A stretch of DNA of 64,000 bases from Escherichia coli (GTDB lineage: Bacteria; Pseudomonadota; Gammaproteobacteria; Enterobacterales; Enterobacteriaceae), in assembly GCF_016903815.1 (NCBI RefSeq), contig NZ_CP069973.1; one strand, given 5' to 3'. The notes below the pieces were generated by a model that ran no database searches, was not told the origin of the DNA, and worked only from the letters and a program-made list of their open reading frames with translations. How positions within the stretch are numbered: the first letter of the stretch is position 1; the number at the start of each line of letters is the position of its first letter. The position numbers were made by a program, and so were the translations under genes. This document shows positions 45,799 to 48,700 of the stretch, in pieces.

Positions 45799-48700
45799 TT
45801 ACCAGTCGGCGTAAGGTATCAGCGGCTGCGGCGGTAAATCCATGTCACCCTGCCATCCGGCGGCGGAATAACGTACGTAGAGCAGGAAATGGCTGGGTGC
45901 GTAATCTTTCGCCTGCTGGATATCAATTGCCGTGCCGACAAACCAGTTGGAAGTAACACGTCGTTCAAGTAATGCCCGCGCCGTGTAGCCAAAGCCCTGA
46001 CTGCTGCCGCCATCGTTCGATTGCCGCGCAGCTTCTTCCTGCCAGTCGGTCGGGATCAGATTCATCAGCGGATAACGCGGCATGGTTTTGGTGCGTGAAT
46101 GCGACCACGAGCCAGACGCCCCCAGCTCCCACGACCAGTTTTCCGTCCGCTCACGCCACATCACCGGTATGGCAAACGACAGGTATTCCTGCGGGCTGTA
46201 GTAACCGCCCTGACCGAGTGAGTAGCCACTCAGGTCTTTGTCGTAATGCCAGATCATGTTGTTCAGGCCGATTGTGACGCGGCGATTGTTCTGGTTAATG
46301 ACCTTATAGTAATAGCCCGTCATCCAGCGCACACGCCAGTTATCTTCGACATTTTTACCGGTTAACTGGTCACCGCTAAGCGATGCCCAGACGCCGTTTG
46401 CTTCACCTTTATCGTAGCTCAGGCTTAGCCCCACGCCGTCGGCACGCACGCCACCCCATTTTTTCCCGGTATTGCTCGGGGAGTCTTTTTGCCCGCCAAA
46501 GGCCAGCAAAGAACTGGAAATGGGCCGACGATGGGCGTTAACGGTGTAACCCAGCGGCCCGATATCATCGCTGTAACTGATGCCGCCGACCACATCCACC
46601 ACGTTGAAGCCCATCGGCGTGGTACCGATATCCCAGCTCCAGACGTCATTTCGCCAGCCGACCGCCACGCTGGCACCGGAATCCGACTGGCTGCGGTTGC
46701 CGCTACAGTCCTGTAATGTACAGGTGCCCCAGTTGTCATCCCATTTGCCATCGGCATTCGTGGAGAAACTGCCAACGTTCATATTGACGAAATCACTGCG
46801 AAAGAACATCCGCCCGTCAGAATACGGCGCATCCACCTGCAACATGGTAGTGTGCGCTTTCAGATCGGAGTAACCACCGGTGCCGCTCGAACCCCAGTAA
46901 TCGTGCTCGAGGGTGACGTTAAGATCCTGCTGGCGATAGAGGTCAGCCGCATCGCTGCGCACGCCGCGTTTCAGCCAGTCATCTTTCTCGTCGTTACGGG
47001 TCAGCCGGGTAAAGGTGTCGTTATCCTGCGGACGCGTCGTGGTCACACCGGATGCAACCATGGCGTCTTTGTAGGTTTCCAGCGCCTGCGTTGGATCGCC
47101 CGCCAGCGCTTCAAACTTCGCACCATCACGCAGTACCATCGCGCTTTCCATCGACGGTGGCTGAGATTTTGCCTGCGGGATCAACTTATTAAATGTCTGC
47201 TGCGCCGCTGCGGTATCGCCAAGCTGCGCCTGTGCCAGCGCCGCTCTGTCCTGGTCATGACCAGAGAGATACAGCCCGTAAGCGTAAACCTGCTCCGGGT
47301 CGTTCGGCTTCTGCTGCGCCAGATTACGCATTAACGTATCGGCCTGGCTGCGTTGTCCGGCCTGCCAGAGATCCTGCGAAAGTCGGTAAGTAATCCATAC
47401 GCTGCCGGGGTCCAGCGCCAGTCGTTGCCGCTGAAGTGCTGCCGCCTGCGCCCATTTGCCCTGGTTTTCCAGTGCCTCTGCCTGCTGTGCCAGACGGTCG
47501 TTTTGCAGGCTGCGTTCGATATCATCAATGCTTCGCCGCTGACTGGCAGAGAGCGAGGCGATAAACGCTTCAGCTTTTTCTGGCGATTGCTGGCGGTATA
47601 TATTCGCCAGCCCGCGCACGGCGTTAGTGTTGCCGCTGTCCATACGCAAGGTCTGCTGATAATAACGTTCGGCGGCGGGATAATCTTTTCGCGCCATCGC
47701 CACATCGCCCAGCCCCAGCACTGCATAGCTGTCGGTGTTATCGACATTACGCGCCTGCTGGAACAGGCGTTCTGCCCGGTCAGGATTATTGGCTTTCAGC
47801 GCAGCATCGCCCTGCTGGATCGCCAGCCAGTAGCGGTTTACTTTCAGGAGACTGTTCCATTTGTCGTTGTTGCTGCTGTGCGGATCCAGGGCGAGGGCTT
47901 TTTCCAGATTCGCCACCGCATTGGCGCGATCGCCTTTCTGAGAATACGCCTGGCCCAGCGCCCCCAGAGCCTCACTGTCTTTCGGGTTCGCCCGCACTGC
48001 CTGTTGTAGTTCGGGAATGGCTTTACCCGCCATACCAGAGTCCACCGCCGCTAAACCTTGCGCACGAGCGCGGAAAGCAGGGTCGGCCAGCTGTTTTTGC
48101 TGTTCTGCCAGTTGCGATTGCGCCGCAGCTACGCTATCGCCATCACTAAAGATCGAGAGATATTTTTTCAGCGCCGACACACTGGCATCGCTGACGGGCA
48201 TGTCTTTAATCTGCCCGTACCAGATTTTAGAGGCCCCTTCGCGCCCGGCGTTTGATTTCGCCATCTGTTCCAGGACGGCAAAACCTTCGTCACGGCGATC
48301 GCTACTAAACAGCAATAGCGCCAGATTGTTTTGCAGGCCCGTATTGCCCGGCGTATCCGCATTAATGCGTTTTAGCTGATTAATCGCTTCGCCACGGCGA
48401 GCCGGAATTTTCGCCACCGTACTCCAGTACTCGACGGCAATGTCACCTTCCGGCGGCGCACCGTTGAACAGTTTGTTGTAACTCGCCACAGCTTCTTCTG
48501 CATGACCAGTAGTCGCCTGCAATCTTGCCTGTTGCAGTGCCTGACGACCATCCGGCGTGGAAAGCAACATTGTGGTCCGCGACGATTTATACGCATTTGA
48601 ACTCGGCGCTAACTGCGACAGCCGATCGAGCTGTTTTTGCGCGCCATCAATATCGCCCTGACGTAACAGAGAACGGAAACGGGCGGCAACGACGTCCGGG

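Follow-up and report, generated by a model that had tools for sequence, protein, structure and literature searches.

A deletion between 9-bp direct repeats shortens the TPR scaffold of BcsC in the Escherichia coli clone ST405

Can a BcsC protein that lacks 130 of its 1157 residues still serve the export of cellulose, or does it mark an operon that has ceased to work? The question is raised by a 64,000-nucleotide stretch of Escherichia coli DNA (assembly GCF_016903815.1, contig NZ_CP069973.1), referred to here as the window, in which bcsC encodes only 1027 amino acids. Strain 7/2, identical to the window, shows the same gene order, bcsR-bcsQ-bcsA-bcsB-bcsZ-bcsC, with bcsC as the last gene of the bcsRQABZC operon. 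From the sequence alone, an original prediction had proposed that bcsC carries an in-frame deletion of 390 bp in the region encoding its tetratricopeptide repeats (TPRs). We consider it very probable that the short gene reflects an inherited slippage deletion in the operon of the clone of sequence type (ST) 405, and that this operon most likely no longer secretes cellulose. Three points have no counterpart in the original prediction: a premature stop in bcsQ (W120*), the status of the allele as a marker of the ST405 clone, and the loss of 3.5 TPRs, not a whole number, including TPRs proposed to contact cellulose.

The deletion and its breakpoints

Aligned with bcsC of K-12 MG1655 (b3530; 3474 bp, encoding 1157 amino acids, as the original prediction had stated), the DNA of the window shows one gap of 390 bp, at nucleotides 1641 to 2030 of the K-12 gene, and no further indel, with 66 mismatches over 3084 aligned bases. 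At the protein level, K-12 residues 548 to 677 (130 amino acids) are absent, and outside the gap just four substitutions (A177T, S526P, R692Q, and Q723L) separate the two proteins. The DNA and protein alignments thus bear out the proposed in-frame loss of about 130 residues, and alignment to a reference BcsC, which had been suggested as a check, verifies the missing block. Likewise, the expectation that the deletion would lie within the TPR region and spare both ends of the protein is upheld by the alignment, by Pfam, and by the helix map described below. The signal peptide is unaltered, and the beta-barrel domain BCSC_C (Pfam; residues 802 to 1136 of the full-length relative, E value 7.9e-120) lies outside the deletion. 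By descent, the protein is a truncated allele of BcsC, and its solenoid falls short of the complete set of 19 TPRs.

At each end of the missing block lies one copy of a 9-bp sequence, GGCGCTGGC, repeated perfectly in direct orientation and coding for (A)ALA; the copies lie at gene nucleotides 1641 and 2031 both in K-12 and in EFF60, the closest full-length relative. The window retains a single copy, within the junction codons GAC AGA GCG GCG CTG GCA CAG (DRAALAQ), and the junction can be placed anywhere between 47233/47234 and 47242/47243. The original prediction was right that the loss had occurred between two short ALA-encoding direct repeats. Its junction at 47232/47233 is essentially correct in position but falls one base outside this range of ambiguity. 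Identity between the two breakpoints ends after 9 bp in the forward direction and 0 bp in the backward direction, and the join is seamless, without mobile-element or foreign DNA.

Given the flanking 9-bp repeats, the retention of one copy, and the lack of further homology or of a mobile-element scar, the most likely origin is a slipped-strand or microhomology-mediated deletion between the GGCGCTGGC copies 390 bp apart. In lacI, Albertini et al. reportedly described in 1982 spontaneous deletions between short direct repeats that arise by replication slippage. The bcsC deletion resembles these in its flanking direct repeat, in the single copy kept, and in the absence of a scar, and we see no difference in kind. 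RecA-dependent unequal recombination between TPR repeats was considered and rejected, the identity at the breakpoints being just 9 bp.

The gene as a whole is rich in such repeats. With 67 distinct direct repeats that are 9 bp or longer, it has about double the number in codon-shuffled controls (34.6), and the repeat at the breakpoints is in itself nothing out of the ordinary. The spacing is in frame for 40 of the 67, compared with 63% in the codon-shuffled control. With some 60% of microhomology pairs in frame, as in the shuffled control, an in-frame outcome is expected without selection, and selection for in-frame alleles, which we considered as a cause, is not needed.

Other in-frame deletions of BcsC TPRs are present in the protein database. 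We found at least 13 further E. coli alleles, spread over residues ~211 to 730, and about nine alleles in Salmonella, one of which (del316-397) is present on 337 contigs. The alleles del522-689, del478-679, and del484-673 overlap the block lost here. Most of the recurrent deletions sit between repeats of two to four residues (such as AQQ, AQA, RQQ, or AAAR), and none falls in the beta-barrel. Recurrent in-frame TPR deletions flanked by microhomology could help in scoring the integrity of bcs loci, since rules based on length cannot tell them from true truncations.

Descent of the short allele

Of the 5426 complete E. coli genomes surveyed, 5422 have bcsC and 5315 contain the 390-bp block. The survey of E. 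coli genomes proposed along with the original prediction places the exact deletion junction in 93, always on the chromosome. The junction was counted both with a 45-bp query and with a 71-bp query tolerating one mismatch, and the same 93 genomes were returned; the latter query revealed no sequence variants of the same deletion beyond the 93 in the 5426 genomes. As the tolerant query adds no carriers, the 14 other bcsC-positive genomes without the block must hold different lesions. Public assemblies contain the exact 1027-residue protein (WP_020233589.1) in 2837 index blocks, and it is recorded on at least 1000 contigs. As a separate observation, a near-identical copy of the chromosomal bcsC, with the 390-bp block, occurs in about 130 records that bear the label of E. 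coli plasmids; those listed are ~77 to 214 kb in size, and 73 are predicted to be mobilizable.

Carriers with a published sequence type are ST405. WCHEC96200 has been published as ST405, phylogroup D (PMC5762679), WCHEC4533 and Z1002 were used in a comparison of ST405 genomes (PMC9037040), and STO_Bone2 was typed as ST405 (bioRxiv 10.1101/2022.05.07.487787). The bcsC deletion is an inherited allele common to the ST405 clone, and its exact junction is a clean marker of the main ST405 clade.

The polarity of the change is indicated by EFF60, which was found with a query that joined the flanks in the window to the K-12 block and so ranked full-length relatives first. EFF60 has an intact bcsQ and a 3474-bp bcsC (1157 amino acids), and shares with the carrier 7/2 the protein accessions of BcsA, BcsB, HmsP, DctA, YhjJ, KdgK, PdeH, and YhjG. 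Its differences from the window over 19.2 kb amount to six single-nucleotide polymorphisms (SNPs) and the 390-bp gap. With K-12 as the outgroup, two SNPs in bcsC are derived in EFF60, and five changes are derived on the carrier branch: bcsQ L29L, bcsQ W120*, bcsZ A95V, pdeH H98H, and the bcsC deletion. Three of these five alter bcs proteins, the other two being synonymous. Since both EFF60 and K-12 are full-length and have the repeat at both breakpoints, the short bcsC is, as judged from these comparisons, the derived form, and it arose on a very short branch. Close relatives do carry the same 1027 residues, a finding that the original prediction had thought might speak against a deletion, but these relatives share the same derived allele, and the nearest non-carrier, EFF60, has 1157 residues.

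The TPRs lost from BcsC

AlphaFold2 was run on an alignment of 35 sequences, and the full-length BcsC of EFF60 was modeled with a mean predicted local distance difference test score (pLDDT) of 87.0. The TPR numbering was anchored on the published limits of TPR#1-17 (residues 24-664) and TPR#1-18 (24-709) and on TPR#19 in the crystal structure of residues 707-1157. On the resulting helix map, the deletion extends from within helix B of TPR#14 to within helix A of TPR#18 (Table 1). It removes TPR#15 to #17 as a whole, half of #14, and half of #18, in total 3.5 TPRs, leaving about 15.5 of the 19. One hybrid helix stands in place of eight helices, a net loss of seven, and by helix counting on the model the A/B alternation of the solenoid is interrupted.

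The model of the shortened protein is overall as confident as that of the full-length protein (mean pLDDT, 87.8), and its barrel strands are predicted at high pLDDT. Confidence falls only at the junction, where the two 10-residue blocks score 68 and 56 (intact protein, 86 and 90) and where residues 553 to 555 drop below 50.

In the cryo-electron microscopy structure of full-length BcsC, a putative cello-oligosaccharide is stacked on W766 and contacts TPR#18 and #16 (PMC11379886). TPR#16 and half of TPR#18, the proposed cellulose contacts, are lost from BcsC in the window. At the other end of the solenoid, the TPR#1 residues that dock on BcsB are Gln30, Gln34, Leu37, Gln49, Arg53, Leu56, and Ile57 (PMC11379886); TPR#1 is free of substitutions relative to K-12. 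Compared with the full-length E. coli protein (P37650; PDB 9b8a/9b8h and 6tzk; Verma et al. 2024, PMC11379886), the protein encoded in the window shares the signal peptide, TPR#1-13, TPR#19, the linker with W766, and the 16-stranded barrel, whereas residues 548 to 677 are gone and a hybrid helix of low predicted confidence, unnatural in its makeup, is found instead. In a comparison with homologues down to about 29% identity, one position of the lost block is invariant and 11 are nearly so. TPR_19 (residues 615 to 683), which is the strongest of the single TPR matches in Pfam, is almost wholly deleted.

Function of the operon and competing explanations

The short BcsC does not stand alone. In the window, bcsQ, which is expected as one open reading frame (ORF) of 250 codons, appears in the ORF list as two pieces. 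In translation, a stop takes the place of the Trp that K-12 has at codon 120, the stop of K-12 itself being at codon 6. An internal stop in bcsQ is also flagged in PEC011 and Ec-U4-19, two atypical carriers, and the bcsC and bcsQ lesions stand together in the window and in the three annotated carriers (7/2, PEC011, and Ec-U4-19). A 71-bp haplotype spanning the bcsQ stop is found exactly in 93 genomes, a count equal to that of the bcsC junction. Across 28 contigs examined, the deleted bcsC never occurs together with an intact bcsQ.

The consequences for secretion can be estimated from published work. BcsR and BcsQ are essential in vivo, and BcsQ contacts ATP through N152, R156, and N171 (PMC8892547), all of which lie after codon 120. 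Disruption of bcsC abolishes secretion as well (PMC8892547). According to a statement in PMC5944007 that cites Serra et al., the nonsense mutation in bcsQ of K-12 abolishes cellulose production, and its repair restores it. That mutation (TTG to TAG, codon 6) is likewise an independent premature stop in bcsQ, but it differs from the one described here in its position (codon 6 versus 120), in the codon (TAG versus TGA), and in the lineage in which it occurred, and the bcsC of K-12 is full-length. With W120* in the same operon, the operon would most likely be non-functional whatever BcsC does.

We therefore favor the following course of events, which would account for the locus as a whole. The 390-bp deletion would have a single origin, in the ancestor of the main clade of the clone published as ST405 (phylogroup D), and bcsQ W120* and bcsZ A95V would have been gained on the same short branch. 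The truncated BcsQ, a protein essential for cellulose secretion, would be without its ATP-contact residues, and the shortened BcsC would be without TPR#16 and half of TPR#18, both proposed to contact cellulose. The operon would then no longer secrete phosphoethanolamine-cellulose. The allele belongs to the documented instances of convergent cellulose loss among invasive E. coli clones. Carriers have most likely lost cellulose secretion; we infer this from the DNA, as we do the slippage mechanism and a selective reason for the loss.

This convergence has been described before. Nhu et al. (2024, Nat Commun, PMC10881479) report that loss-of-function mutations have arisen convergently in the bcs cellulose operons of extraintestinal pathogenic E. 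coli, and they count ST405 among the clones whose bcs mutations fall on a defined branch point, with clonal expansion thereafter. The ST405 entries of their Supplementary Data 3, based on 100 sampled genomes, list "truncated.bcsC + truncated.bcsQ" in 88%, the same pair together with bcsZ in 1%, and together with bcsE in 1%. Of the other ST405 genomes, 2% are listed with bcsB only and 2% with bcsA only, and these entries hold no row with bcsC or bcsQ alone; according to their source data, a bcs lesion of some kind is present in 94% of ST405 genomes. The clone-wide, one-branch pattern is also seen here, in the 93 identical junctions, in the intact EFF60 only six SNPs away over 19.2 kb, and in the agreement with the ST405 table.

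Truncation was scored in that study as an ORF below 99% of full length, a rule under which, as given there, both bcsQ W120* and the 130-residue bcsC deletion fall. The 1027-residue allele would thus have been counted without its in-frame nature being noted. The ST405 case of Nhu et al. concerns the same lineage and the same genes, and the two lesions occur here in equal numbers of genomes (93 each). As far as the text considered goes, the nature of the bcsC lesion is not given, and the 99% rule treats in-frame deletions, nonsense mutations, and frameshifts alike; the virulence experiments described there were done with bcsA in ST95 and not with ST405. Hence, the pair of bcsC and bcsQ lesions in ST405 is already known, having been tabulated in 2024 (PMC10881479). 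What the present analysis adds is the exact breakpoints, the 9-bp repeat, a near-ancestral comparator, the mapping of the loss to 3.5 TPRs, and the recurrence of in-frame TPR deletions. Searching the literature for ST405 and bcsC jointly yielded no match.

As a discovery the allele carries little weight, since the lesion pair is already tabulated and the protein, with a standard entry in RefSeq, occurs in thousands of assemblies. Its value lies rather in annotation. A bcsC that the Prokaryotic Genome Annotation Pipeline (PGAP) labels as intact, as it does in strain 7/2, is short of 3.5 TPRs, some of them proposed cellulose-binding repeats, and in view of the neighboring bcsQ stop the operon should not be read as functional.

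Several points weigh against an operon that has lost its function. A literature search found no Congo red or calcofluor phenotype for any ST405 strain. PGAP annotates the 1027-residue bcsC as intact, every other bcs gene is intact, and beyond the junction the shortened BcsC is predicted to fold confidently. UGA is the leakiest of the stop codons, and near-cognate read-through inserts Trp, the original residue, so that some full-length BcsQ is possible. In addition, 34 of 34 homologues keep 128 to 138 residues at the position of the block, but these were chosen as full-length, and their agreement is therefore partly by construction. Finally, the identity of the two sets of 93 genomes is deduced from their equal counts and from spot checks.

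Of the competing explanations, the one that survives best concerns the order of events. Possibly, bcsQ W120* came first and inactivated the system, after which the bcsC deletion and bcsZ A95V followed neutrally under relaxed selection, without a share in the phenotype; we give this slightly less than an even chance. It departs from the course favored above only in the order and the weight of the two lesions. Such relaxation is suggested by the three non-synonymous or disruptive changes in bcs genes versus two synonymous changes on the same short branch over 19.2 kb, by the further hits in the clone (the extra bcsZ or bcsE truncations, 1% each, and a blaCTX-M insertion in one isolate), and by the repeat-rich, slippage-prone makeup of bcsC, with its 67 repeat pairs versus 34.6 after shuffling. 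On the other hand, no genome with only one of the two lesions was seen in the two counts of 93 complete genomes, the spot checks, the 28 contigs, or the entries considered from Nhu et al., and the reverse order, or independent selection of both lesions, may have applied instead.

A second explanation holds that the 1027-residue BcsC is functional and that the deletion is an adaptive remodeling of the periplasmic TPR conduit, with cellulose still being exported, perhaps in altered amount or with altered properties. The preserved reading frame, signal peptide, BcsB-binding TPR#1, and beta-barrel are consistent with this, as are the intact call by PGAP, the confident AlphaFold prediction everywhere but at the junction, and the recurrence of in-frame TPR deletions in E. 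coli and in Salmonella, where one allele reached 337 contigs. Nevertheless, we regard it as improbable. The same operon carries a nonsense mutation in the essential bcsQ, the loss of 3.5 TPRs breaks the predicted A/B alternation and, where cellulose is proposed to make contact, takes away TPR#16 and half of #18, and the block is conserved in all homologues examined. Moreover, an in-frame result is the default for this gene (40 of 67 repeats; shuffled control, 63%), and in one isolate an IS1380-family transposase and blaCTX-M lie in bcsQ, as might be expected for an operon released from selection.

Slightly less probable still is a broader version, in which in-frame shortening of the TPRs is recurrently selected and is not neutral decay, the porin and the BcsB-docking end being kept while mid-to-distal TPRs are dropped from a variant that works. 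Such a protein might be served by low-level BcsQ from UGA read-through, or it might avoid a toxic periplasmic build-up of cellulose to which a bcsC null mutant would be exposed. If this were true, the ST405 allele would be a natural experiment on the number of TPRs needed for cellulose export.

Nothing beyond the bare difference in length suggests an artefact of assembly or sequencing, or an ancestral short form into which 390 bp were inserted in other strains, and both can be dismissed. The identical junction is found in 93 independent complete genomes and thousands of assemblies, and the 9-bp repeat is too short for assembly collapse. The block itself is carried by 5315 of the 5426 E. coli genomes and by the nearest sister, EFF60, and it extends to Salmonella, Citrobacter, and Enterobacter and to homologues down to about 29% identity.

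In the remainder of the locus (Table 1), bcsR, bcsA, bcsB, bcsZ, bcsE, bcsF, and bcsG are all full-length without internal stops.

Table 1. Features of the bcs locus in the window and helices of the TPRs affected by the bcsC deletion
Feature	Position	Strand	Basis or remark
bcsC, 1027-residue allele; in-frame deletion of residues 548-677 (full-length numbering)	45799..48882	-	ORF; alignments to K-12 and EFF60
Retained single copy of the 9-bp repeat; deletion junction, ambiguous over its 9 bases	47234..47242	-	Repeat at both ends of the block in K-12 and EFF60
bcsZ, full-length, derived A95V (SNP at 49687)	48864..49970	-	Ala in K-12 and EFF60; carriers share WP_020233588.1
bcsB, intact	49977..52316	-	WP_001309034.1 common to carrier 7/2 and EFF60
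bcsA, intact cellulose synthase gene	52327..54945	-	WP_000025849.1 common to carrier 7/2 and EFF60
bcsQ pseudogene, premature stop at codon 120	54942..55694	-	Translation; PGAP internal stop in 7/2, PEC011, and Ec-U4-19
bcsQ TGA stop (TGG to TGA, W120*), context CAG TGA ATT	55335..55337	-	TGG in EFF60 and K-12
bcsR, intact	55706..55894	-	Translation/annotation
Divergent operon, intact: bcsE (56166-57737), bcsF (57734-57925), bcsG (57922-59601)	56166..59601	+	
TPR#14 of BcsC	residues: helix A 529-541, helix B 545-552		
TPR#15 of BcsC	residues: helix A 562-585, helix B 589-597		
TPR#16 of BcsC	residues: helix A 603-615, helix B 619-632		
TPR#17 of BcsC	residues: helix A 637-649, helix B 653-660		
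TPR#18 of BcsC	residues: helix A 671-683, helix B 687-703		

Two minor observations concern the surroundings of the operon. The isolate with the disrupted bcsQ (GCA_003628175.1, contig RCAD01000060.1), a carrier of the 1027-residue BcsC, has the IS1380-family (ISEcp1-like) transposase and blaCTX-M inside bcsQ, followed by an IS5-family transposase after blaCTX-M. In this contig the insertion replaces bcsR and bcsE upstream, and the W120* TGA is still present downstream of it. In K-12, ldrD follows directly after bcsG. In strain 7/2, three tandem genes for type I toxins of the Ldr family are annotated downstream of bcsG, which by correspondence places them at ~59700 to 61100 in the window.

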